Shown in pieces: positions 23,884 to 36,887 of a stretch of DNA of 58,088 nt; position 1 is the stretch's first letter; every line of letters starts with the position of its first letter. The notes below the pieces were generated by a model. The model had not been told where the DNA came from. It did not search any database and worked only from the letters and a program-made list of their open reading frames with translations. The position numbers and the translations under genes are program-made. This DNA comes from Candidatus Desulfatibia profunda. Lineage in GTDB: Bacteria; Desulfobacterota; Desulfobacteria; Desulfobacterales; UBA11574. The stretch lies in the NCBI GenBank assembly GCA_014382665.1, contig JACNJH010000207.1, positions 1-58,088 on the forward strand, read 5' to 3'.

Positions 23884-24051
23884 GCCGAATAGTTCTATTT
23901 TACGAGCACTTGTGACGAGTTTTATCCGCCTTTGGCGTGATCGCGCGGTTTACAACGGGATCATCCGACGGCGATAATATATTTAAGCCTTTTTCATTAT
24001 TGGTTGTAGCCGCAAGGCCATGTTTGTTCATGCAAATAGCGGAGGGATAAG

Positions 24052-25254
24052 ATGCCGGGCAGATTGCCCGAAAACTTTAACAACTGGCTGGTGGAAGTGC
24101 GCCGCTGGTTTCACCGGTTTCCCGAACCGGCTTACCGGGAAGAAAAGACCGCAGTCAGAATTTGCGAAATACTAGATTCTTTCGGTGTACCCTTTCAAAC
24201 CGGTGTCGGCAAAACCGGCGTGGTGGCGACACTCAGCGCCCGGCGATCCGGAGCAGTCGTGGCCTTTCGGTCCGACATGGATGCCTTGCCCCTGGAAGAG
24301 GCCAACGAAGTTCCTTATAAGTCCCAGCATCCAGGATGCATGCATGCCTGCGGTCATGACGGTCATATCACCATCGCCCTGGGCGTCATTCGCTGGCTGG
24401 TGGAAAGGAACTGGCCTCAAAAGGGCTGCGGCACGATTCTCTTTATCTTCCAGCCGGCCGAAGAAGGCGGAGCCGGTGCCAAGGCCATGCTGGAGAGCGG
24501 CATTTTCGACACACTGCCGGTGCAAGCTGTTTTCGCCGGCCACATGTATCCTGAACTCCCTGTCGGGAATATCGGAATCGCCCCGGAAATCAGCAACGCC
24601 GCAACCAACAGCATCAGCATTCGGCTAAAGGGCAGGGGCGGCCACGGCGCCCACCCCCATCAATGTATCGATCCCATCGTCGCAGGAGCATATCTGGTCA
24701 CCCAGTTGCAGACGCTCATCAGCCGGGAACTGCCTCCCCTGGAAAGTGCCGTACTCACCATCGGACGATTCGAGGCCGGCACAGCATCAAACATTATTCC
24801 CGAAGAGGCCGTTCTGGAAGGGACTCTGCGAACCCTTCGCCCTGAAATACGGGAAAAAATGATCACACGGCTTCAACAGATGGTAAAGGGTGTGGAGCTG
24901 TCTCACAATGTTAATGCAACACTTCAGCTTGCCCCGGGCTATCCGGTGCTGATCAATGATTCCAAGCTCGTAAAGCATACCCGGGATGTTGCCGCAGAAG
25001 TGCTCGGTGCTGACCATGTCCATTCGCTGTTGCCCAGGATGGGAGCCGAGGATTTTGCGTATTTTTGCGAAAAATGGGGCGGGATCATGGTGGGGCTTGG
25101 CTGCCACGATCCTAAGCAAGGAATGCAGCATGGCCTGCATTCTCCGCACTTTGACTTCGATGAAACTGTCCTGGAAGTGGGGACCCGGCTGTTCGGCAAC
25201 ATTTTGACGCGGTATCTGGAAAAATTCCCGGTTCGTCCGGATTTAGGGTCTTGA
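24052..25254 (+). CDS. M20D amidohydrolase
   Basis: RSDMDALP, MHACGHDGH, QPAEEG, GGHGAHPH, AEDF. Confidence 0.9.
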   Translation: MPGRLPENFNNWLVEVRRWFHRFPEPAYREEKTAVRICEILDSFGVPFQTGVGKTGVVATLSARRSGAVVAFRSDMDALPLEEANEVPYKSQHPGCMHACGHDGHITIALGVIRWLVERNWPQKGCGTILFIFQPAEEGGAGAKAMLESGIFDTLPVQAVFAGHMYPELPVGNIGIAPEISNAATNSISIRLKGRGGHGAHPHQCIDPIVAGAYLVTQLQTLISRELPPLESAVLTIGRFEAGTASNIIPEEAVLEGTLRTLRPEIREKMITRLQQMVKGVELSHNVNATLQLAPGYPVLINDSKLVKHTRDVAAEVLGADHVHSLLPRMGAEDFAYFCEKWGGIMVGLGCHDPKQGMQHGLHSPHFDFDETVLEVGTRLFGNILTRYLEKFPVRPDLGS

Positions 25255-26460
25255 AATCATCAAAACGGCAGAGGCTTTGCTTAAGCGCTTCAGACGTTGG
25301 GGGTCCACTTCCACGCCCAGACCAAAACCATTTAGAGGGCCGGCCTTACCTCCCGAACCAAAAGTTACATTTTTGAAGGTGATGTTTTCCTTTAACATGA
25401 ATTCGTCATAGGAGCCTTCATAAAATAAGGCATCGCCGCAGAGCAGGCAGAGCACCCTGCCGACGGCAGATAGCAGCCCGGATTCGCCCATATGGCAGCC
25501 AATCTGGAAATGAATCCTGTTTTGGCGTAAATAGTTGATCAGTTTGAGTGAATTTCTAATACCGCCGCATTTAGACAGTCTGATGTTGATCATTTTATAG
25601 CAGCCCTCTTTGACAATCTTTTTTATGTCTTTTAAAGAGCATGCCGACTCATCGGCCATCAGGGTGACGCCGGATGATTGCAGCATGCCGGCAAAATCGG
25701 CCAGATCCGAGTCGTTCGGTGTCATGGGCTGCTCAAGCACCTTAACCTCATACTTGCTGAGCAATGGTATGTGCTGATATGCCAACGCACGGTTCCAGAC
25801 GCCGTTTACGTCCACCTTCAGCTCGCAATCATCTCCAAACACATGGTGGACCGTTTCGATGATTTCTTTGTTCTGGGCATAGTCTTTGCCCATCTTCAAT
25901 TTCAGCCGGTGTATTTCCTTGCTTTTGATCAGCCGGCTGAATTCCAGAATTTTCGATTTGCGGACCAATGGAATCCCCGCGCCGTAAAAGACCGAACCGG
26001 TTAAAAAATCCTTGGGGAAGTATTCGATGATGGATGTGCCCCGGTGTTTACCCACAGCATCCAGCAGGGCGGTTTCAATTGCGCAGATTGCTGAATTTTG
26101 GTCCTTTCCGTTAGAAAGCCTGTCAACGAAATCCCAGATTTGCGAAACGTCATTCAACTCCCAGGGGAAATTGTCCTGCCGGGCAAAACGGCAAATACTT
26201 TCGACAGCGCTGTCCTGTGATTCTCCGGTTACGTAGGATCTGGGAGCACCTTCTCCGTATCCTTTAATCGCGCCTTTTTCGGCAATCACTTCGACAATGA
26301 TATTATTGGCCGAGAGTCTTTTCCTCAGGGAGTGAGAAAACTCGTCTGAAAACGGAAGTGAAACCGGGTATAGCTTAACCTGGTCTATTTGCATGCTGTA
26401 AGCCCTCGTATCAATTCTGCGTAAATCAAAAAAACGAGCCCCGAGATCTTGGTGTTTCAT
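25243..26460 (-). CDS. enolase superfamily (muconate cycloisomerase / dipeptide epimerase-like)
   Basis: KLKMG, DVN, EQP, DES, RLSKCGG; start may be ATG 26394. Confidence 0.8.
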   Translation of the reverse strand: MKHQDLGARFFDLRRIDTRAYSMQIDQVKLYPVSLPFSDEFSHSLRKRLSANNIIVEVIAEKGAIKGYGEGAPRSYVTGESQDSAVESICRFARQDNFPWELNDVSQIWDFVDRLSNGKDQNSAICAIETALLDAVGKHRGTSIIEYFPKDFLTGSVFYGAGIPLVRKSKILEFSRLIKSKEIHRLKLKMGKDYAQNKEIIETVHHVFGDDCELKVDVNGVWNRALAYQHIPLLSKYEVKVLEQPMTPNDSDLADFAGMLQSSGVTLMADESACSLKDIKKIVKEGCYKMINIRLSKCGGIRNSLKLINYLRQNRIHFQIGCHMGESGLLSAVGRVLCLLCGDALFYEGSYDEFMLKENITFKNVTFGSGGKAGPLNGFGLGVEVDPQRLKRLSKASAVLMISRP

Positions 26461-26512
26461 GGGGCAGGCAGCATTCCCCGTTCGCCCGCGATCCCTTTTT
26501 CAGTAGGGTTCT

Positions 26513-28501
26513 TCAAACCGGAGCGGATTGATCAGGGGGAGTCTTCGGCAATTTTAAGGTAAATATGGTCCCTTTATTCTCATCGCTTTTTACTTCGATA
26601 ATTCCGTGATGGTCTTGCATATTTTGATGGGCAATAAACAGGCCGAGACCGGTCCCGCTATGGATGGTACTCTTGTGTCTTGTTGTAAAATAGGGGTCGA
26701 ACACCTTGTCGATATAGGCGGGAGGAATTCCGGGGCCATTGTCTTTAATTTCGATCTGAACAAAATCAAGTTTTCCTTTTTCGACACAACTTTTTGTAAC
26801 AAGCTCGATTTTTCCTCCTTCAGGCGTAAAGTCGACCGCATTTGAAAGCAGGTTCAGAATAATCTGTTTCATTTTTTCAGTATCCATCCAAACCGAATTA
26901 ATACCAGGATCAAATTTCCGGATGACTTCAACTTTTTTGGCATTGCTCTGAGGGGAAATGAGCAAAGTCATTTTATTGATCAGGTCATGAAGATCACTGT
27001 ATTCGAAATGCGATTCTTTAGTGTTGACCAAATTCAGAAGTTCTGTGACGAGGTTGTTTACCCGTATGGTTTCTTCCAGGGCAATCTTATGAAAGTCCCT
27101 GCGGAATTCCAGATCGTCATATTTCTTCGGCAGCATCTGCATGAAGGTCCCGATGGCGGTCATGGGGTTCTTAATCTCATGGGCCAGTCTGGCAGCCAGG
27201 TTCCCCAGGAAGGAGAACTTTTCCATTCTGCTGATCAGGGCTTGTGATCTTTTCAGCTCAAGCATCTGTTCCTGGAGCTGGCTGTAAAGCCTGGCGTTTT
27301 CAATGGCGATAGCGATCTGGGGCGCAAACACTTCCAGGGTTTCCCGGGTTTCATTAGGGACTCCGTCATTATCAACCGCGTCCGTGGCGATAACCCCGAT
27401 TACCTTGGAGCGTGTAATTAAGGGAACCACGAACACCGAAGCCGGTTTCCCGTAAGTTAACATGATGTTATCTTTTCTTAAGCTAGAGCTTTTTACTTCA
27501 GGCACATATTCCGGCCGGCCGGTACTGGCGACCCTGGCTAAAATGTTACTTAAACGATCCAGGGATACCTTGTAATTTTTCATCTGTTCCGGCATTTCAC
27601 CGTCAAAACCCACGCCGTGAATATATTCAAGACAGCCTTCGTTTTCATTCACAAGCATGATGATGGCCCGGTGGATATGGCAGGCATTGGAAAGGATGTT
27701 CATGATAACCGTTAACAGAGGTTCCAGGTCCAGTACGGAAAGAATCGCCTTGCCTGTTTCTTGGATAGCCAGGAGCTGTTTTATTTTTTGATTCAGCTCT
27801 ATGTTCAGCCGATAGACCTCACTATATTTTTCCTCGATAAGCTCTTTGTCTTTTTCAATTTCCGTTAACGTTTCCATCAAAACGGATTTTGGCGTGAAAA
27901 ACCCCGAAAAAATTCCCTCCAACCTGTTTTTGTTTGCCCATTTTAAATGGTATTCGCAATATAAAACGCCGTCAAAGTAGCATTTTTTTTCTTCAAGCGT
28001 CAGTGGCTTTGCTCCCCACGTGGTTGGAATGAATGCATAAACCCCCTGATTGTACAGGCATATGTCTCTGGACACATCCATTTGGGGATTCCAGTGTAAT
28101 CTTAAGATGGCGCTGTTCTTTTCCAATTCAACCAGTTCTACTTCCTTGTTCCTGTTCCATTTGGCATTGATCCTTTGAACGTTTTTAAGAACTCTGTGAT
28201 GCGACCCGAAAACTTTTACAATTAAGCTTTTAAAGCCCAGATCAATCTTCTCGACGGCATGCTGGGCAATTTTAAAAGGAGCCAGTTCGTCATTAAGAAT
28301 CAATTTGGCTCGACGGTATAACTTGGAAATGACGGTACAGGAGATCCAATTGTTGGGATCGCATAAAAAACCTTCCGGGTTCGACAGGCGGTCAATCTCG
28401 GGGTCAAGGTCCCTTAATAAAGCGGAACAGTCGCCGTTATTATGCTTCTGGACATAATCCAGGATTACTTTGGAATTGATACAGCTTGTTTCCTTTTCCA
28501 T
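26513..28501 (-). CDS. soluble histidine kinase (N-terminal unknown/V4R-like domain, GAF, HisKA, HATPase)
   Basis: LAHEIKNP, NLLSNA, DNGPGI, GTGLGL; no obvious TM segment. Confidence 0.88.
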   Translation of the reverse strand: MEKETSCINSKVILDYVQKHNNGDCSALLRDLDPEIDRLSNPEGFLCDPNNWISCTVISKLYRRAKLILNDELAPFKIAQHAVEKIDLGFKSLIVKVFGSHHRVLKNVQRINAKWNRNKEVELVELEKNSAILRLHWNPQMDVSRDICLYNQGVYAFIPTTWGAKPLTLEEKKCYFDGVLYCEYHLKWANKNRLEGIFSGFFTPKSVLMETLTEIEKDKELIEEKYSEVYRLNIELNQKIKQLLAIQETGKAILSVLDLEPLLTVIMNILSNACHIHRAIIMLVNENEGCLEYIHGVGFDGEMPEQMKNYKVSLDRLSNILARVASTGRPEYVPEVKSSSLRKDNIMLTYGKPASVFVVPLITRSKVIGVIATDAVDNDGVPNETRETLEVFAPQIAIAIENARLYSQLQEQMLELKRSQALISRMEKFSFLGNLAARLAHEIKNPMTAIGTFMQMLPKKYDDLEFRRDFHKIALEETIRVNNLVTELLNLVNTKESHFEYSDLHDLINKMTLLISPQSNAKKVEVIRKFDPGINSVWMDTEKMKQIILNLLSNAVDFTPEGGKIELVTKSCVEKGKLDFVQIEIKDNGPGIPPAYIDKVFDPYFTTRHKSTIHSGTGLGLFIAHQNMQDHHGIIEVKSDENKGTIFTLKLPKTPPDQSAPV

Positions 28502-28544
28502 TTAATGACCCAAAAGCGAAGGAAATGTCCTTTATTTAAAATGC

Positions 28545-29999
28545 CTACTGAACGCTTTTACTCAATAAGGCATAACATGACCCGGGCAATCCGGATGCAA
28601 TCTTTCTTACGGGACGGCTTCCCAGCGCGAGCATTAATTTATTGTTGCAATATGGCCACAGCCGTCTGCGGCGCCTGATAAACCTTGCCAATAAAATCAG
28701 GAAAGTTTCATAGTTTTTTTGGTATCTGACATGGCTTCTGGTATAGAACCTGAACGCTTTCTCATTAAAAGGCTCAATAATACGATCCTTGAGCGCCCTG
28801 TCGTAGATGGGCGTGCCCGGAAAGAAAGCCAGAAAAAAAATGTTGATCCGAACATGCAGCGGCAAATCAAGAATATATTTATATGTCTGGATGATGTCAT
28901 CCGGGGTTTCGTATGGGTTGTCGATGATAAAATCAAGAAGAAGATCAAGGCCGTGGGTCTTATGGTACGATGCGAGCTGATGAACAACAGCCTTGGTTCT
29001 GGACAGCCTGATCCTGCGATGGTACACTTCATCAAGAGTCTGCTGACTCCCCGACTGGACGCCCATCTGGACGACCTTCAGGCCGGAATCCAAAAGGACT
29101 TCCATCTTTTCCTTATGATAGGTGTTTGCACTTACAGCAATACCAAAAGGGAGACCGATGCTCTTTTTATATTTTCGGGCGAAATGCGCCAACTGTTTTT
29201 TGGACCGCATGAAAAAATCGTCATCACCGAAAACAACAACTTCAATAAAATCGAGATGCTCAAGGGTATGTTCGAGTTCCTCGATGACGCGGTCGATACT
29301 GTAAAATCGCATGGTATTGCGGCCGAACAATGTGATGTAGCGGCTGTTATTGCAATAGGAACATTGATGCGGGCAGCCCCGGGACGTAATGAAGTATAAG
29401 ACCGGTACATTATACGGATAACCTGCCAGCCTTTCCTTGAGCAACGTCTTGGTCATTTGGAAAAGCCCCTGATCCAGCAGGAATTGTTCGTCCAAGTTGT
29501 AATCGTAGTATGGCAAACCGTCAAGATCGGCGAAAGGCGCTAAGACTTCGTTCACCAAAGGCGTGCCATTCACATTAAACGCCATGTTTGGCGTATGGAG
29601 ATAATCGGTGCCTGCTTCCAATCTGTTCGCGAAATCAACGGCCGCCTGGTCGCCTTCGGAAAAACAGATGCCATCGGCGTAGCGAAGCCCGAGCTCTGGG
29701 ACTGAAATGCAATGGGGGCCTCCCCATATCACTTTCATTCCGGGAAATTTCTTGTGAATATATTGAGTGACCTGTACGGCCCGAACCGCATAGCTGCTAT
29801 AAACGGCAACCATGACTAGGTCGGACTCAGCGAGCATTTCGTCTAGCGGCTCGAGTTCGTCTGCATTGTAGTCCAGCGGTTCAGGCCTGGATAAAAATAC
29901 GCTTTTTACCCGATGGCCGGCTCGTTTCAACAACGCTGAAATAAGACGGGAGCCGTCAGAAGACTGTCGACCGGAGACATTGATCAGTACAATATTCAT
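28545..29999 (-). CDS. B12-binding radical SAM protein
   Basis: RGCPHQCSYC, GDDDF, GVQSGS; N-terminal cobalamin-binding-like domain. Confidence 0.88.
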   Translation of the reverse strand: MNIVLINVSGRQSSDGSRLISALLKRAGHRVKSVFLSRPEPLDYNADELEPLDEMLAESDLVMVAVYSSYAVRAVQVTQYIHKKFPGMKVIWGGPHCISVPELGLRYADGICFSEGDQAAVDFANRLEAGTDYLHTPNMAFNVNGTPLVNEVLAPFADLDGLPYYDYNLDEQFLLDQGLFQMTKTLLKERLAGYPYNVPVLYFITSRGCPHQCSYCNNSRYITLFGRNTMRFYSIDRVIEELEHTLEHLDFIEVVVFGDDDFFMRSKKQLAHFARKYKKSIGLPFGIAVSANTYHKEKMEVLLDSGLKVVQMGVQSGSQQTLDEVYHRRIRLSRTKAVVHQLASYHKTHGLDLLLDFIIDNPYETPDDIIQTYKYILDLPLHVRINIFFLAFFPGTPIYDRALKDRIIEPFNEKAFRFYTRSHVRYQKNYETFLILLARFIRRRRRLWPYCNNKLMLALGSRPVRKIASGLPGSCYALLSKSVQ

Positions 30000-30014
30000 T
30001 AATCGCCTTTTTGT

Positions 30015-30983
30015 TTAACCGATGGAAGGTTGCAGCAGTCCGATTGCCGACGGTGCTTTAAATTTGATGTCAGCAGGTGTAAACATATCAAGTTCCGGAT
30101 ATTTCTTCCACAAATACCATTCTTGAGGATATTTGTATATACACTCTTCCAACAATTTTAAGACAACCGCGCCGACAGATCGATCAGCGTGTTGCCGAAG
30201 CTGTTTTGCGATTTGTACCAATGAGGTTGCAATAAAACTGTATCGCTGCTGGTCATTTCGATGCATAACACCAAAAACAACGGCAGCGGGCCATCGTTTC
30301 GACAAGATGTCGATGGTTCTGTCCAGGCTGATCGGTTTGCCCAAAAATAATATCCGATTATGTCGAGAAGGTTTCCATTCGTCGATTTCGTCACATTGGG
30401 TAATGACAATTCGATTCTCTTTAAGGTCCTTACAAATTGTTTTTACAATATTGGGCTCAAAGTCGGCGTCGATTATTTTGACGTTAAAATGCTCCGCTTG
30501 CTGCAAGGATACTTGACGCAAACGTTTTGATTTAAACTTGGCAACAATTGTTACCGGATAGTTGTTGGCACCCAGAAAAGCGGGAATAAACTCAACCCCG
30601 CCATAGTGCCCGGTAATTAAAAGAACACCTTTACCCCTGGCAAGCCCTTGTCGGACAGCATCCAGACCCGCACCTTCGATATGAGTGTTGATAAAAGCCC
30701 GCAATATTTTGGCGGCGGAAAAGGCATTAAAAATCTTTTCATAATAATGGTATAAAATTCCCCGAAAAATGTCCTTTGTTATGGATTTGATTTCATGGTG
30801 CTGCTTGCAACCGCCGAATGCGGTTTGCACAGCCGTTTTAATTTTCGATGTTTCCGCTCCGTTAAAGAAAAAATATAATCTTCCCAGAAAGCTTATGTAA
30901 TAGAGCGTGATTCTCCATCCCAGCAGCCGGCATAGAAAAATATTAAACCGGCATTGCAAAAAAGAACTTAAGTTGATCTTCAT
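30015..30983 (-). CDS. LpxL-like / lysophospholipid acyltransferase
   Basis: LLITGHYGGVE (Hx4E) motif; QEWYLW. Confidence 0.75.
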   Translation of the reverse strand: MKINLSSFLQCRFNIFLCRLLGWRITLYYISFLGRLYFFFNGAETSKIKTAVQTAFGGCKQHHEIKSITKDIFRGILYHYYEKIFNAFSAAKILRAFINTHIEGAGLDAVRQGLARGKGVLLITGHYGGVEFIPAFLGANNYPVTIVAKFKSKRLRQVSLQQAEHFNVKIIDADFEPNIVKTICKDLKENRIVITQCDEIDEWKPSRHNRILFLGKPISLDRTIDILSKRWPAAVVFGVMHRNDQQRYSFIATSLVQIAKQLRQHADRSVGAVVLKLLEECIYKYPQEWYLWKKYPELDMFTPADIKFKAPSAIGLLQPSIG

Positions 30984-31421
30984 GACGATTCCTCCTTGCT
31001 TAAAAAGGTTGACCGGCCTGCTATCCTCCGCGAAGCACTAACGCACGCCGGAATTTCCGCTCTTTGTTAGGGCGCAGAGTTTCACATCATTGAGCTCAAC
31101 ACTAAAAAAGATTAAACGGGCATTCAGATTGCTGTTGCAGCTCATTTTTTGCCCGCACCAACGAAGAAGTCTATTGGCTAACAAATTAAAAAGTTGGAGT
31201 TCTTTGTTTAGGTATAATTTCTCTCAAAAAACATGCCAAAACCTGAGACATCGGGTTTCGGGCGCAAAAATTAGCAAACATATCCTGATAACATTGAACG
31301 CCGGCAGGATGCAACGCCTTTATTTCATGGGAATTCCAGCCATCCCGACATAATATGTCAACAGCTCGTATCTACCCGTCGCGCGTGCAGGCGATGCAAA
31401 TGGCAACCGGCAATGCTTAAA

Positions 31422-31470
31422 AAAAATGCACAGAAAAATGTGCGCCATGCATATTTTTCTGTGCATTTTT
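31422..31470. promoter_or_regulatory. paired palindromic sites, candidate sigma54-activator enhancer
   Basis: perfect 18-bp IR AAAAATGCACAGAAAAAT / ATTTTTCTGTGCATTTTT, readable as two TGCAY-N8-GTGCR boxes. Confidence 0.5.
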
Positions 31471-31839
31471 ACCGGCTCTTTGATTGACGGACCTGAAATT
31501 TTATGCTGGGATGAACTGTTAATGAATTTTATTGATGGAAATACCTTGTCATTTTATGAAAGATGCCGGGCAAAAGCAGCAATTCATATCGAAATCTAAA
31601 GAAAAAATCGTTTGCACCAAAAAAAATGGCATGCAATTTGAATGTGCAACACATATTGCGGTTTTAGAGGTTATCTGTCCGGCCACGGCGGTTCCGGCGG
31701 CAGTAGTTGAACTGTAACAGCGAGCGAATATTAACATAGCAGAATTCCTTACAGTCGAAGATTTTCTGTAGAGCTTGTTGAAGCAAAGCGAAAATCCCGA
31801 CGAGTCCCGGAGAAATTCTTCAAACAAAAAGAGAATGTT

Positions 31840-33198
31840 GTGATGATGAATAACAAGGCTTCCATTCTGGTCGTTGATGATGAACATGGCGTTCGCCAGT
31901 CATTTAACATGGTGTTAAAAGATCAATACAATGTCCTGTTAGCAGGCACAGGGGAACAAGCAATTGATATTTTAACAAAAAATTCCGTCGATCTCATTTT
32001 GCTGGACATCCTTTTGCCGGATATTAACGGCCTTGATCTTCTGGAAAAACTGATGGAAACCGATCCGAATACGGAAATCATCATGGTAACCGCTGTTAAT
32101 GACGTTCAGGTGGCGGTAAGGGCGATTAAACTGGGCGCTTATGAATATATCATTAAACCCTTTGTCGTGGACGAAGTGCTGACCGTAATTCAGCGGGCTT
32201 TGGAAAAACGAAGTCTGAAAAAGGAGGTGGCCTATCTCAGGAACGCGCTGGAAAGGTATCATCTTTTTGAAAAGATGGTCGGTCAAGATAAAAAAATGCT
32301 AAAGATTTTTGAATTAATATCGACGCTTTCTCAAAGCGACGGTACGGTCATTATCCAAGGGGAAAGCGGAACCGGTAAAGAACTGGTTGCCAGGGCCATG
32401 CACAACAGGGGACCGCGCAGAGGCCATCCGTTTGTGGTCATCAATTGTGCAACCATCCCGCCGACACTGATGGAAAGCGAAATCTTCGGCCATAATAAAG
32501 GGGCATTTACAGGAGCCATCACCACCAGTATCGGCAAGCTTGAAATTGCAGATAGGGGGACCGTTTTTCTTGATGATATTGATTCTCTGGATATCAATAT
32601 GCAAGCCAAGCTCCTCAGGGTCATTCAGGAGAAGGAGTTCGAAAGACTGGGGAGCAACAAGGTGATCAAGGCAGATGTCCGATTTGTGGCGGCTTCCAAT
32701 AAAGACCTTAAGCAAATGATTTCAGCGGGTAGATTTCGTGAAGATCTTTATTATCGCCTGAATGTTTTTCCTGTCAAGCTGCCGCCGTTGAGAGAACGAA
32801 GGGGTGATATCCCCTTATTGTTGAATCACTTTTTGGAACTGTACGCTAAAAAGACCGGGAGTCCCCCTAAAGAAATTTCAGAGCAAGCCATGGCTGTTTT
32901 CAAGGAATATGATTGGCCGGGAAATGTCAGAGAACTTCAAAACATGGTGGAAAGGTTGTGTACCATTACAAGGAATTCAATCATCCAGCGTAAGGATATT
33001 GCCGCTTATAACATGCATAAAACTGAAATTAAGGACATGATGCTTAAAGAAGCCGTAAGCACCTTTGAAAAACAGTACATCCTGGAAGTACTTGACAGCG
33101 TCAACTGGAATCGAAAAAAAGCGGCCGAGAAATTAGGTATCCACCGCAACACCCTTTTGACCAAAACGGCTGAACTCGGCCCGAATTTGAAAAAATGA
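31840..33198 (+). CDS. NtrC-family sigma54-dependent response regulator
   Basis: receiver domain, GESGTGKE, GAFTGA, FREDLYYRLNV, C-terminal HTH. Confidence 0.93.
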   Translation: MMMNNKASILVVDDEHGVRQSFNMVLKDQYNVLLAGTGEQAIDILTKNSVDLILLDILLPDINGLDLLEKLMETDPNTEIIMVTAVNDVQVAVRAIKLGAYEYIIKPFVVDEVLTVIQRALEKRSLKKEVAYLRNALERYHLFEKMVGQDKKMLKIFELISTLSQSDGTVIIQGESGTGKELVARAMHNRGPRRGHPFVVINCATIPPTLMESEIFGHNKGAFTGAITTSIGKLEIADRGTVFLDDIDSLDINMQAKLLRVIQEKEFERLGSNKVIKADVRFVAASNKDLKQMISAGRFREDLYYRLNVFPVKLPPLRERRGDIPLLLNHFLELYAKKTGSPPKEISEQAMAVFKEYDWPGNVRELQNMVERLCTITRNSIIQRKDIAAYNMHKTEIKDMMLKEAVSTFEKQYILEVLDSVNWNRKKAAEKLGIHRNTLLTKTAELGPNLKK

Positions 33199-33521
33199 AA
33201 AAAAGAAGCCACAAAGTATCTCACCCGTATTTCTCGCCAGCCTGATTCCTATCTTCGCCCGGCTGAAAACCAAAGAAGCTTTCGCCGGTTTTCTCGCCAT
33301 TACAGGCATTTATTTCAAGGATCGATTCGTTTTACAATTTAAATCTTTTTTTTTCATTTATTCTTGACATGAATTTGCAAGTTGATTATAGGTTTTGCCT
33401 TACATAATTTTTTGCTGAATAGATACCGAAAGCAGCTTTTCGTTAGTTTTCATTGTTTTAGGATAGGGGTCCGGGTATCATAGCCGGGCGAAAATCGACA
33501 GTTTGAGGAGCGGTCCGGAAG

Positions 33522-34088
33522 ATGAGGTTGAACGATCTATTGGCGCAAAGAAAAGCTTCTATTGTCAAAAAGTGGTTTGCCATGGTGATCGAGACCTATC
33601 CTGCCGACACCGCCCAGTTTTTAAAAAGCCAGAAAGATCCTTTTGCCAACCCTGTGGGCAGAACCATTTTGCGCAGTTTGGAACCGCTCTTCGACGAACT
33701 CTTGGGAGGCATGGATGGTGAGACGCTGGCATCCCTCCTCGATCCGATCATCAGAATCAGGGCTATTCAAAGTTTTTTCCCCTCACAAGCCATCGGATTT
33801 ATTTTTTTCTTAAAAAATGCCGTTCGAGAAAATTTAATCAAAGAAATTGCTGAAAATAAGATTGCCGCTGAGCTGCTTGTTTTCGAGTCAAAGATTGACC
33901 AACTCGGTCTGATTGCGTTTAACCTTTACATGAAGTGTAGAGAAAAAATTTACGACCTCAAGGCCAATGAGATCAGAAACCGAACCCTCAGGGCCTTTGA
34001 GAGGGCGGGTTTGGTGAGTGAACTGCCGGAGGTTGAGCCGGTTTTGGAACCTATTAACTTTACGAAGGAGGCTTCAAACAACAGCTAG
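33522..34088 (+). CDS. RsbRD N-terminal-like domain protein preceding dsrM
   Basis: KDPFANPVG, IIRIRAIQ motifs; position ahead of dsrM. Confidence 0.65.
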   Translation: MRLNDLLAQRKASIVKKWFAMVIETYPADTAQFLKSQKDPFANPVGRTILRSLEPLFDELLGGMDGETLASLLDPIIRIRAIQSFFPSQAIGFIFFLKNAVRENLIKEIAENKIAAELLVFESKIDQLGLIAFNLYMKCREKIYDLKANEIRNRTLRAFERAGLVSELPEVEPVLEPINFTKEASNNS

Positions 34089-34193
34089 ATTTGCGCGAGC
34101 CCGGCAAGGTTTTTTTGTGTTGCTGCTGCCTGAAAAGATTACGGGCGGATCCGGTTTGTTGGCATGAAGCCGTAGCAGTGAGGTAATTGAATA

Positions 34194-35231
34194 ATGAATA
34201 TCAGTTACTTGTATTCCCTTATAGCGGTTATCGTGCTTGCTCTGTTTGCCTATGTGGGCTCCAAAGTAACAGGGGGTGAAGCGCTTTTCGGCCTTATCCT
34301 GCCGTTTCTGGCTGCCGTCACTTTCCTTGTGGGTTTTATTTACCGCATCGTAGACTGGTCACGTTCGCCGGTGCCTTTTCGAATTCCCACAACCTGCGGC
34401 CAGCAGAAGTCTCTGCCCTGGATCGAGTCTGCATGCATAGACAACCCGAGCACTACCGGCGGTGTGATTGCGCGGATGTTTCTGGAAATCGTCTTTTTCC
34501 GATCATTATTCCGCAATACCCAGTGCGAGCTCAAAGAGGGAGATAAGCTTTCCTACCGGTGGGAAATATGGCTGTGGGTCGGCGCCCTGGCTTTTCACTG
34601 GGCGTTCTTTACTGTCGTGGTAAGGCACTTGCGGTTCTTTATGGAACCGGTCCCGGTCTGCCTCAAGGTGCTGGAAAAATTGGACGGGTTTCTTCAGATC
34701 GGTATGCCGGGGCTGATGCTGTCCGGCGTCGTCCTGCTGGCCGCCGTAGCCTTTTTATTTTTAAGAAGACTGTTTACACCTCATGTGCGATATATTTCCC
34801 TGGCTTCGGACTATTTCCCGCTCTTTCTGATTATTGGCATCGCCTTTACCGGCATCCTGATGCGCTATTTCACCAAGGTGGAAATTGTAAATGTCAAAGC
34901 GTTCACCATGGGACTGGTCACACTTAAGCCCCATGTTCCCCATGGTATCGGGGGTATTTTCTATGTTCATCTGTTTTTGGTCTGCATCCTTTTGGCCTAT
35001 TTTCCCTTCAGCAAGCTCATGCATCTGGGAGGGATCTTTATGAGTCCCACGAGAAACCTGACCACCGACAGCCGCGCCAAAAGGCACATCAATCCGTGGA
35101 ATTACCCCGTGAAGATTCATACCTACGATCAGTATGAAGATGAATTCAGGGAGAAAATGATAGAAGCCGGCCTGCCGGTCGACAAAATGGTTGAGGCCCA
35201 AGCGCCTGAGGAATCAGAGGAAAAGGAGTAA
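34194..35231 (+). CDS. dsrM: DsrM membrane cytochrome b
   Basis: PFRIPTTCGQQ, AFHW, PFSKLMH, PTRN. Confidence 0.93.
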   Translation: MNISYLYSLIAVIVLALFAYVGSKVTGGEALFGLILPFLAAVTFLVGFIYRIVDWSRSPVPFRIPTTCGQQKSLPWIESACIDNPSTTGGVIARMFLEIVFFRSLFRNTQCELKEGDKLSYRWEIWLWVGALAFHWAFFTVVVRHLRFFMEPVPVCLKVLEKLDGFLQIGMPGLMLSGVVLLAAVAFLFLRRLFTPHVRYISLASDYFPLFLIIGIAFTGILMRYFTKVEIVNVKAFTMGLVTLKPHVPHGIGGIFYVHLFLVCILLAYFPFSKLMHLGGIFMSPTRNLTTDSRAKRHINPWNYPVKIHTYDQYEDEFREKMIEAGLPVDKMVEAQAPEESEEKE

Positions 35232-35234
35232 AGA

Positions 35235-36887
35235 ATGTCAGACACACCCACTCCGGAAGAACTGTTGTCGAACATCGCCCCCAAACCGCCCCAAACGGGA
35301 TGGATGGATACCCCTGTCGACATAAAAAAAGGAATCTATTGCTACGCGGCGAACCCTAAGAGCGTTGAATACGTCGGTCTGCCCCACGCCAGGCCGTGGA
35401 ACCCCGTTGAACAAGACTGGGCCCTGCCGGACAACTGGCAGGAGATCATTACCCAAGGTTTCAGAGAACGGCTTGACCGCTTTCGTTCCGTGAAGGTCTT
35501 CATGGACATCTGCGTGCGTTGCGGGGCCTGTGCCGATAAATGTCACTTTTTTATAGGATCCGGTGACCCCAAAAACATGCCGGTTCTGAGGGCCGAACTT
35601 TTGCGTTCGGTGTATCGCAATGATTTTACGGCTGCCGGCAAGATCATCGGATCCCTCGGGAAGAGCTTTAAAAAGATCGTCGGTGCCAGGGAACTGACCC
35701 TGGATGTGCTGAAAGAATGGTGGTACTATCTTTTTCAATGCTCCGAGTGCCGCCGCTGTTCGGTATTCTGCCCGTACGGCATCGACACGGCCGAGATTAC
35801 CATCATGGGCCGCGAGCTTTTAAACCTCATCGGCCTGAATATCGACTGGATCGCCACGCCGGCGGCCAATTGCTACCGTACCGGGAACCATCTCGGCATT
35901 CAACCCCATGCCTTCAAGGATATGCTCGATTTCTTCACCGATGATATCGAAGAAATCACCGGTGTCCGCGTGGAACCCAATTTTATGAAAAAAGGCGCCG
36001 ATATCCTTTTTATCACCCCTTCGGGTGATGTGTTCGCCGATCCCGGAACGTATACCTGTATGGGGTACATGATGCTATTTCACTACCTGCGGGAAAAATA
36101 CGGTTTCGACATTACCTGGAGCACGTATGCATCCGAGGGCGGCAACTTCGGCTTTTTTACCTCCCACGAAACCATGAAGCGGCTGAACGCCAAAATGTAC
36201 GCCGAAGCCAAGCGCCTGGGCGTAAAATGGATCCTGGGCGGCGAGTGCGGCCACATGTGGCGGGTCATTCACCAGTACATGGATACCATGAACGGCCCGG
36301 CCGATTTTCTGGAAGAGCCGGTGTCTCCGATTACCGGCACCAAATTTGAAAATGCCAAATCGACCAAGATGGTCCATATCGCCGAGTTCGTCGCCGACCT
36401 TATCAAACACGATAAACTGGAGCTGGACCCCAGTCGAAATGATCATTTGAAGGTTACCTTTCACGATTCGTGCAACGTATCCCGCGGTATGGGAATGTTC
36501 GAGGAACCCCGGTATGTCATCAAAAACGTCTGCAACAATTTTTTTGAGATGCCGGCCAACACCATCCGGGAGCAGACCTTCTGCTGCGGCAGCGGCAGCG
36601 GCCTGAATGCCGGGGAGAATATGGAGCTGAGGATGCAGGGGATATTACCCCGAGCCAATGCGGTCAAATATGTTCACGAAAAGCACGGCGTGAACATGCT
36701 GGCCTGTGTGTGCGCCATCGACCGGGCGGCCCTGCCGACAGGAATGCAATACTGGGTTCCCGAAGTCGATGTTACCGGCATGACCGAGCTGGTGGCCAAT
36801 GCACTGATCATGCCCGGCGAAGGAAAGAGAACGACGAACCTGCGCAGCGAGCCGCTGCCGGGAATGGAGGATGATGATGCCGAATAA
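35235..36887 (+). CDS. dsrK: DsrK iron-sulfur (CCG) protein
   Basis: CVRCGACADKC, CSECRRCSVFC, GECGH, HDSC, CCG. Confidence 0.95.
   Translation: MSDTPTPEELLSNIAPKPPQTGWMDTPVDIKKGIYCYAANPKSVEYVGLPHARPWNPVEQDWALPDNWQEIITQGFRERLDRFRSVKVFMDICVRCGACADKCHFFIGSGDPKNMPVLRAELLRSVYRNDFTAAGKIIGSLGKSFKKIVGARELTLDVLKEWWYYLFQCSECRRCSVFCPYGIDTAEITIMGRELLNLIGLNIDWIATPAANCYRTGNHLGIQPHAFKDMLDFFTDDIEEITGVRVEPNFMKKGADILFITPSGDVFADPGTYTCMGYMMLFHYLREKYGFDITWSTYASEGGNFGFFTSHETMKRLNAKMYAEAKRLGVKWILGGECGHMWRVIHQYMDTMNGPADFLEEPVSPITGTKFENAKSTKMVHIAEFVADLIKHDKLELDPSRNDHLKVTFHDSCNVSRGMGMFEEPRYVIKNVCNNFFEMPANTIREQTFCCGSGSGLNAGENMELRMQGILPRANAVKYVHEKHGVNMLACVCAIDRAALPTGMQYWVPEVDVTGMTELVANALIMPGEGKRTTNLRSEPLPGMEDDDAE

Follow-up and report, generated by a model that had tools for sequence, protein, structure and literature searches.

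What does a soluble sensor kinase respond to when its gene lies among those for a membrane acyltransferase, a B12-binding radical SAM enzyme and an enolase-superfamily enzyme? This question is raised by a locus of Candidatus Desulfatibia profunda on the stretch of DNA that was analysed (contig JACNJH010000207.1, 58,088 nucleotides; hereafter the window). Four co-oriented minus-strand genes encode, in order, an LpxL-like acyltransferase, a B12 radical SAM enzyme, a histidine kinase and an enzyme of the MR_MLE family, with gaps of 15, 43 and 52 nt; a gene for an NtrC-type regulator diverges from them and one for an M20 amidohydrolase converges on them. This layout had been recognised in the original prediction and was confirmed by open reading frames (ORFs) and Pfam/NCBIfam matches. 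The same prediction proposed that the enzymes make a lipid-like or acyl-amino-acid signal, that the kinase detects it and that the amidohydrolase degrades it. Comparison across the phylum demonstrated that the cassette is a real conserved unit in uncultured sulfate reducers, and we consider it moderately probable that it constitutes a sigma-54-dependent two-component switch controlling a specialised acyl-tailoring operon. The data show which genes are present, their predicted folds and intact catalytic motifs, how the genes co-occur and that the regulatory DNA is conserved; from these we infer the ligand, acceptor, product, direction of sensing and phosphorylation partners.

Co-inheritance of the genes was examined in 301 genomes of the phylum, which were searched three times, once each with the sensor domain of the kinase, the acyltransferase and the MR_MLE enzyme as query. 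The sensor domain was detected in 30 genomes at E ≤ 1e-50. An acyltransferase subfamily profile identified 29 genomes, all of which fell inside the sensor set, and the MR_MLE subfamily (at least 329 bits, the next scores dropping to 264 and below) was present in 30 genomes, 28 of them shared with the sensor set. As the genomes are mutually related no P value is given, and the pattern spans at least a dozen families from the Desulfobacterales, Desulfatiglandales, Desulfobaccales and Syntrophobacterales. The three genes were neighbours in 16–17 of 20 phylum-wide loci, despite clade differences in order and orientation. Among the 47 loci whose flanks reached 4.5 kb or more in both directions (five being duplicates between two collections), the acyltransferase and MR_MLE genes were each present in 44, an NtrC gene in 37, any B12 radical SAM gene in 26, an M20 gene in 10 and a FadL-type channel gene in six. 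The predicted conservation of the cluster therefore held tightly for the kinase, acyltransferase and MR_MLE genes, but not for the radical SAM gene, which is optional, nor for the M20 gene, which was absent from all 20 phylum-wide loci.

Attachment of NtrC to the cassette was restricted to one clade. In metagenome-assembled genomes (MAGs) of the Desulfobaccales and Syntrophobacterales, this sensor domain is carried by kinases with another transmitter, PAS(+GAF)-HisKA_3, whose genes still adjoin the acyltransferase gene and an overlapping MR_MLE gene. The constant partner of the two enzymes is the sensor domain, rather than the kinase core or the type of regulator. This persistence across kinase types is the strongest argument that the ligand of the sensor belongs to the chemistry of the acyltransferase/MR_MLE pair. 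The M20 gene, by comparison, was found only in near relatives in which the UbiA and DsrMK genes are also syntenic. It is probably not part of the cassette and was rejected as a member; the proposal of a signal-degrading partner falls with it, since every locus with the gene is also syntenic in the rest of its surroundings.

Having established the sensor domain as the constant element, its properties were investigated. The kinase comprises a V4R/H-NOX-fold sensor, a coiled-coil linker, a GAF domain (residues 258–402), HisKA (433–492; H-box, AHEIKNP) and HATPase (540–654), the last three being Pfam assignments. A hydrophobicity scan detected no N-terminal membrane segment, and the sole hydrophobic peaks fell within the GAF domain, in agreement with the earlier description of a kinase with a GAF domain and no transmembrane segment. 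An alignment of 27 homologues (38–61% identical) was generated for the sensor. Sixteen positions were invariant (C7, N9, N51, W52, N116, K119, C148, N151, G153, W162, E171, C174, G178, C182, E183 and W188), five of which (C174, G178, C182, E183 and W188) belong to the motif CYFDGVLYCEYHLKW at residues 174–188, on which a V4R-like C..G...C call had been based. No histidine was invariant or nearly invariant, so a His-ligated haem is unlikely in this domain. A search of PDB sequences with the 27-sequence profile gave no match.

An AlphaFold (AF2) model of the sensor, built on the same alignment, had a pLDDT of 81. Its best structural matches were H-NOX domains (Foldseek E of 1e-6, with TM scores of 0.64–0.72 normalised to the target; VIA Z of 14.9 over 170 residues with a root-mean-square deviation of 2.9), and the palmitate-binding protein Bet3 was matched with a Z of about 10. 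The phenol-sensing domains of DmpR, PoxR and MopR were matched weakly (Foldseek E of 1e-4 to 1e-3, TM of 0.37–0.49) and lay outside the top 50 by Z; the Foldseek matches among XylR-type sensors were 6iy8, 5frw and 5kbh. In the model, C148 is located on a helix (residues 145–162), with E171, C174 and C182 on the hairpin that follows (strands 168–173 and 182–187). The resulting spacing, C-x22-E-x2-C-x7-C, is identical to that of the structural zinc site C149/E172/C175/C183 of XylR, which has been reported as common to PoxR, MopR and DmpR (bioRxiv 10.1101/2021.01.17.427014) and has likewise been described for DmpR (PMC7264223). The domain is thus predicted to be a divergent member of the V4R/H-NOX fold group and probably binds zinc and encloses a hydrophobic ligand. 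The structure prediction that had been suggested as a check returned an H-NOX/V4R/Bet3 fold, and the V4R-like motif call proved right in its invariant C174, G178 and C182, in its XylR-type zinc spacing and in the predicted fold.

Distant paralogues of the sensor domain (E of 1e-12 to 1e-16) adjoin unrelated genes, including those for molybdopterin oxidoreductases, for an enoyl-CoA hydratase and for other radical SAM enzymes accompanied by a methyltransferase; these neighbours gave no hint of the ligand. Two such paralogues, 24–27% identical and carried by other kinases in two genomes of one family, stand beside molybdopterin oxidoreductase genes (L150:5564-7696 and L157:8957-11089), and a further one, in locus L156, comes after two B12 radical SAM genes, an NAD epimerase gene and a methyltransferase gene.

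The acyltransferase scored 58.1 bits against PF03279 (cut-off, 22.3). Its HX4E motif (H126...E131) and a TxCDE motif were invariant in 16 homologues, it carries an N-terminal hydrophobic helix, and its AF2 model (pLDDT of 85) was best matched by Foldseek to LpxM (5kn7; E of 1e-12) and PatA. The lipid A lauroyl acyltransferase equivalog of NCBIfam was not reached (60 bits versus a cut-off of 248), and two LpxL homologues elsewhere in the genome scored much higher than the 58 bits of the cassette enzyme, with 198 and 125 bits. By these scores the cassette enzyme is a specialised, divergent third LpxL-type paralogue.

For the MR_MLE enzyme, the catalytic residues were conserved, namely the KxK motif (K187/K189), D217, E243, D270 and K297; all except K187 were invariant in 17 homologues, and the enzyme was also aligned to 1jpm, 3jva and 2p88. 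The best PDB matches of the family profile were the dipeptide epimerases 3jva, 3q45 and 1jpm and the N-succinyl-amino-acid racemase 2p88. All NCBIfam equivalog scores were far below their cut-offs (e.g. o-succinylbenzoate synthase, 112 bits versus 200), and a second MR_MLE gene of the genome, a men-operon paralogue, lies on the contig carrying menD. In dipeptide epimerases such as YkfB, the DxD of strand 8 holds the free N-terminal ammonium group of the dipeptide. In the cassette family strand 8 reads E-G-S where 1jpm and 3q45 have D-F-D, a hint that the substrate may be an N-blocked amino-acid-like compound, or a different one. The enzyme called an epimerase in the original prediction is an MLE-subgroup member of the enolase superfamily, whose likeliest activity is that of a racemase or epimerase. 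Alignment with 16 homologues suggested that its true start is likely to be Met23 (coordinate 26394), which would widen the gap from the kinase gene to 118 nt.

Lipid-themed genes were noted beside the cassette in single distant loci, i.e. a patatin-like phospholipase gene (L041:13747-14949) and a ketoacyl synthase gene with a 3-hydroxyacyl-CoA dehydrogenase gene (L049:12029-14312). In one family (f40), the MR_MLE gene is immediately followed by a conserved ORF of 113–119 residues that matches no Pfam family (L031:7090-7443, L032:12786-13127, L035:2631-2972 and L036:6641-7000); it is absent from the window.

The radical SAM enzyme matched PF02310 and PF04055 above cut-offs and its CxxxCxxC motif reads CPHQCSYC. 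Sequence matches in the PDB were to AprD4 and TokK, and the best NCBIfam matches (HpnJ and P-methyltransferase) were far below cut-offs with no equivalog reached. Across loci, the number of class B radical SAM genes in the slot between acyltransferase and kinase varies from zero to two, and these genes fall into at least three types that are less than 30% identical to one another. On a quick tree of the sensor domain from 42 loci, nine changes were required to explain presence or absence of a radical SAM gene, and 16 for all labels, some of which fell between near-identical sensors. The radical SAM enzyme is therefore an optional, swappable decoration step, present in 26 of 47 loci, and the proposal that it supplies a necessary part of the sensed signal was not sustained. 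Because near-identical sensors go with different or no radical SAM genes, the tailored product of this enzyme is probably not what the sensor recognises.

Control of the operon was assessed by comparing 56 homologous intergenic regions between regulator and operon. At least one TGCACA-N6-TGTGCA palindrome (two mismatches allowed) was present in 46 of these regions and a tandem pair of such upstream activating sites (UAS), 21–22 bp apart, in 33. An element reading TGGCA(C/T)-N5-TTGA(G/A/T) was directed toward the operon in 45 regions, mostly at 194–206 bp from the UAS; the window's version is TGGCAT-N5-TTGAG, ~200 bp from the UAS. Toward the regulator gene, a -24/-12 element was detected in 20 of the 56 regions, many having a canonical TGGCAT-N5-TTGCT ~100 nt upstream of the regulator. 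The NtrC protein has a REC domain with the acceptor Asp, an AAA+ domain with GAFTGA and a C-terminal helix-turn-helix (HTH), and rpoN is present in the genome. Kinase core and regulator scored best against AtoS/AtoC and NtrC in NCBIfam, all below equivalog cut-offs. Regulation of the operon and a functional link between its genes are well supported. The idea of a sensing circuit thus stood as regards regulation, with conserved UAS and a sigma-54-like promoter before the operon, but not as regards a diffusible signal or a degrading role for the M20 enzyme. The window's intergenic region (30984-31839) is 856 bp long, those of most relatives being roughly 250–700 bp, and the operon leader of ~240 nt contains a 35-codon ORF that is not conserved elsewhere. 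No Rfam family, cobalamin riboswitches included, was matched in a scan of 24000-33500.

Table 1. Features of the cassette locus and of related sites (window coordinates, except where a locus is named before the colon)
Feature	Position	Strand	Basis
LpxL/LpxM/PatA-type membrane acyltransferase (operon gene 1)	30015-30983	-	PF03279
Class B (B12-binding) radical SAM enzyme	28545-29999	-	PF02310 + PF04055
Cytoplasmic sensor histidine kinase, 662 residues	26513-28501	-	Pfam domains, alignment, model
Kinase N-terminal sensor domain, residues 1-200	27902-28501	-	predicted fold
Putative Zn site C148/E171/C174/C182 of kinase	27956-28060	-	alignment + XylR spacing
MLE-subgroup enolase-superfamily enzyme, probable racemase/epimerase (last operon gene)	25243-26460 as ORF; 25243-26394 from Met23	-	PF13378 + PF02746
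Terminator-like hairpin directly after MR_MLE stop codon	25227-25241	-	
Sigma-54-like promoter facing acyltransferase operon, TGGCATGTTTTTTGAG	31223-31238	-	
Tandem palindromic UAS, TGCACA-N6-TGTGCA twice, 21 bp apart	31427-31465	no strand	
Candidate sigma-54 promoter for regulator gene, TGGCATGCAATTTGAA	31627-31642	+	
NtrC-type sigma-54 activator, divergent from operon	31840-33198	+	REC, AAA+ with GAFTGA, Fis-type HTH (HTH_8)
M20 amidohydrolase (TIGR01891 group), convergent on operon	24052-25254	+	Pfam/NCBIfam
Other tandem UAS loci of the genome	L056:1614-1653, L057:2383-2421, L058:5035-5074, L059:5021-5060, L060:4413-4452		

Positions of these features are collected in Table 1. The M20 and MR_MLE genes overlap by 12 nt at their 3' ends, and Pfam identified a UbiA-family gene two genes away. 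At window positions 33522-36887 lie genes for an RsbRD_N-domain protein and then for DsrM and DsrK of the DsrMKJOP complex, a block whose synteny with the cassette extends to the nearest relatives. The presence of the DsrMK genes downstream identifies the host as a sulfate reducer.

Taken as a two-component switch, the cassette could operate as follows. A small hydrophobic molecule would bind the zinc-stabilised V4R/H-NOX-fold domain of the cytoplasmic kinase, with the GAF domain as a possible second input, and the kinase would phosphorylate the NtrC-type activator. Bound to the tandem TGCACA-N6-TGTGCA sites, the activator would fire the sigma-54 promoter ~200 bp away and the four genes would be expressed together as an operon. 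The regulator gene probably has a sigma-54 promoter of its own, divergent from the first, and since one UAS sits between the two divergent promoters, positive feedback on both kinase and regulator would be expected. The membrane-anchored LpxM/PatA-fold enzyme would then add a fatty acyl chain to an acceptor, and the MLE-type enzyme would act on the alpha-carbon of a carboxylate, by inversion or otherwise through its enolate; the carboxylate would most likely be an N-blocked amino-acid-like head group. Where a B12 radical SAM enzyme is present, it would add a decoration, probably by methylation. The sensed molecule would belong to the chemistry of the acyltransferase/epimerase pair, which would either use it as a substrate or produce it. 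The cassette probably makes or handles an acylated lipid, and the most likely end product is a cell-bound acylated lipid or lipo-amino acid.

Several observations weigh against this proposal. Residues 1–250 of the kinase matched no Pfam family even at E ≤ 10, the models for V4R (PF02830), XylR_N and H-NOX/HNOB included. The acyltransferase or the epimerase is missing from a few loci, and all of the homologues found come from uncultured MAGs. The -12 part of the operon promoter is a conserved TTGA versus the canonical TTGC. The route to a lipo-amino acid is left unexplained by the lack of an OlsB-type partner: of the 30 genomes with the cassette, two have this N-acyltransferase (PF13444), and it was not found in the genome studied here. 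A scheme in which an OlsB/OlsF/GlsB-type enzyme makes a lipo-amino acid that is then O-acylated here was rejected on the same count; any lipo-amino acid would then need its first bond formed by the transferase of the cassette itself. Finally, five unrelated loci elsewhere in the genome also carry tandem UAS of this type, 21–22 bp apart (zero matches with a reversed control pattern), and each has a sigma-54-like promoter 50–150 bp away. Near one of these sites is a weakly C92-amidase-like ORF with a hybrid kinase ORF behind it, the latter named by BLAST matches with the kinase and the NtrC protein of the window; the other neighbours code for a muramidase, a REC-nucleotide cyclase, a caspase-like peptidase and a GAF kinase. 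The DNA-binding domain of the NtrC protein has no close paralogue in the genome, the next best being 42–44% identical, and together with the five sites this suggests that the regulator may run a wider sigma-54 regulon beyond the operon.

Other explanations differ from this switch in the origin of the ligand or in the role of the enzymes. The circuit first envisaged, in which a diffusible lipid-like or acyl-amino-acid signal feeds a quorum-sensing-like kinase loop and is degraded by the M20 enzyme, is unlikely, even though the tight co-inheritance of the sensor with both enzymes and the likely positive feedback from one UAS serving both sigma-54 promoters would suit it. Swappable radical SAM tailoring could also give such a signal 'dialects', and FadL-type outer-membrane channels, which adjoin the cassette in a distant clade, take up long-chain acyl-homoserine lactone signals in rhizobia (PMC9938287). 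Its M20 component, however, occurs in syntenic near relatives only, the pairing of near-identical sensors with different or no radical SAM genes makes the tailored end product an improbable ligand, and no exporter is encoded in the cassette. Moreover, enzymes of the LpxL/PatA type are known for making lipids that stay bound to membranes. A hydrophobic compound from outside (e.g. a fatty acid, a hydrocarbon-derived acid or an N-acyl amino acid) that enters by FadL, is sensed and is then salvaged, detoxified or incorporated would follow the precedent of V4R-type sensors such as XylR and DmpR, which bind substrates of the pathways under their control (PMC7264223). The uptake of monoaromatic hydrocarbons by FadL channels (PMC7728783), the FadL/TodX genes beside the cassette in 6–7 distant loci and the patatin, ketoacyl synthase and 3-hydroxyacyl-CoA dehydrogenase genes of single loci fit this explanation. 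It is nevertheless unlikely as well, as FadL was not found at the locus in the window's clade (whole genomes were not searched for FadL), the core cassette has no CoA ligase, beta-oxidation or transporter genes, and an LpxL-type transferase dependent on acyl-acyl carrier protein or acyl-CoA is an anabolic enzyme.

Three further explanations treat part of the cassette as bystanders, as housekeeping genes or as peptide-modifying enzymes. In Geobacillus, an N-acyl-amino-acid racemase and an L-aminoacylase together convert D- to L-amino acids. The MR_MLE and M20 enzymes could form a similar pair with the remaining genes as bystanders: the MR_MLE profile matches 2p88 and the N-acyl-amino-acid racemase/o-succinylbenzoate synthase group of enzymes, the M20 protein belongs to the aminoacylase/hippuricase group TIGR01891, and the genes converge with overlapping ends. 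The distribution of M20 across loci makes this pairing very improbable, as do the constant partners of the MR_MLE gene, i.e. the acyltransferase and kinase genes, to which it is often translationally coupled; no GNAT succinyltransferase match was obtained among the genes of the window locus scanned with Pfam. Chance adjacency of housekeeping genes, with a lipid A late acyltransferase and a menaquinone o-succinylbenzoate synthase next to a MenA-like UbiA gene, is suggested by the best NCBIfam names of the two enzymes, both far below cut-offs, and by the UbiA-family gene two genes off. This explanation was rejected as contradicted by the stronger LpxL homologues, by the second MR_MLE on the menD contig and by the restriction of both subfamilies to the ~10% of genomes that carry the sensor, and its probability is close to nil. 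A futalosine pathway was rejected too, since PF02621, the Pfam family taken as its marker, was not found. An equally negligible probability attaches to a lipidated ribosomally synthesised and post-translationally modified peptide, whose small precursor would be encoded upstream, modified by the radical SAM enzyme, epimerised and acylated. Although the radical SAM enzyme has weak NCBIfam matches to methyltransferases of such peptides and the window's leader contains the 35-codon ORF, most homologous leaders are 50–100 nt long with no ORF, no peptide is conserved past close relatives and 21 of the 47 loci have no radical SAM gene. A precursor in the leader was therefore rejected for want of a conserved small ORF.

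The two-component switch accordingly remains the reading that we favour. A bolder extension of it would be a class of acylated, stereo-inverted lipid-like signals, made by LpxL-type and MLE-type enzymes, read by a zinc-containing V4R/H-NOX receptor kinase, varied between lineages by the swappable radical SAM enzymes and, in this organism, perhaps acting through the regulator on a larger set of sigma-54-dependent genes for signalling and the cell wall; this we regard as speculative and improbable. Every part of the cassette comes from a known family. Literature searches on V4R kinases, on the enzyme combination and on an enolase-superfamily enzyme with an acyltransferase and a kinase in Desulfobacteria gave no description of the cassette, and the combination was not found described in the papers searched. 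It consists of a XylR-like small-molecule sensor placed on a histidine kinase and inherited almost only with a non-housekeeping LpxL-type acyltransferase and an amino-acid-type epimerase, and it marks about one-tenth of the sampled genomes in a phylum that dominates anoxic sediments. Were the ligand and product identified, sulfate-reducer biology would gain a class of lipid or signal, and a ligand would be known for a branch of the V4R/H-NOX fold in which neither haem nor phenols appear to be bound.

Among known systems, the closest counterparts of the sensor are the A domains of XylR, DmpR, MopR and PoxR (XylR_N + V4R), with which it shares a cytoplasmic location, a length of ~200 residues and a sigma-54 output. 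The spacing of the zinc ligands is also identical, with a Cys on a helix followed by Glu-x2-Cys-x7-Cys on a beta hairpin. Those domains, however, are joined directly to the AAA+ activator, whereas the sensor described here is fused to a histidine kinase, its predicted fold is closer to H-NOX, and its partners are an acyltransferase and an enolase-type enzyme rather than enzymes of aromatic catabolism. In fold it resembles both the H-NOX sensors of NO and O2, which use haem, and Bet3, a palmitate-binding TRAPP subunit, each of which encloses a hydrophobic ligand; unlike H-NOX, it has no conserved proximal His and possesses a conserved four-residue Cys/Glu site. The acyltransferase has the PF03279 family membership, HX4(D/E) dyad, N-terminal hydrophobic helix and LpxM/PatA fold of LpxL, LpxM and PatA, but differs from them in being confined to sensor-bearing genomes and coupled to an MLE-type enzyme. 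The MR_MLE enzyme shares its KxK motif, Asp/Glu/Asp metal ligands and second Lys with dipeptide epimerases of the L-Ala-D/L-Glu type and with N-succinyl-amino-acid racemases, and departs from the dipeptide epimerases in the E-G-S that replaces DxD on strand 8. The regulatory layout, with UAS and a -24/-12 promoter, is that of AtoS/AtoC, ZraS/ZraR and NtrB/NtrC, and the best scores were to AtoS/AtoC and NtrC; in contrast to those systems, the cassette has a soluble sensor of a different fold and other target genes.

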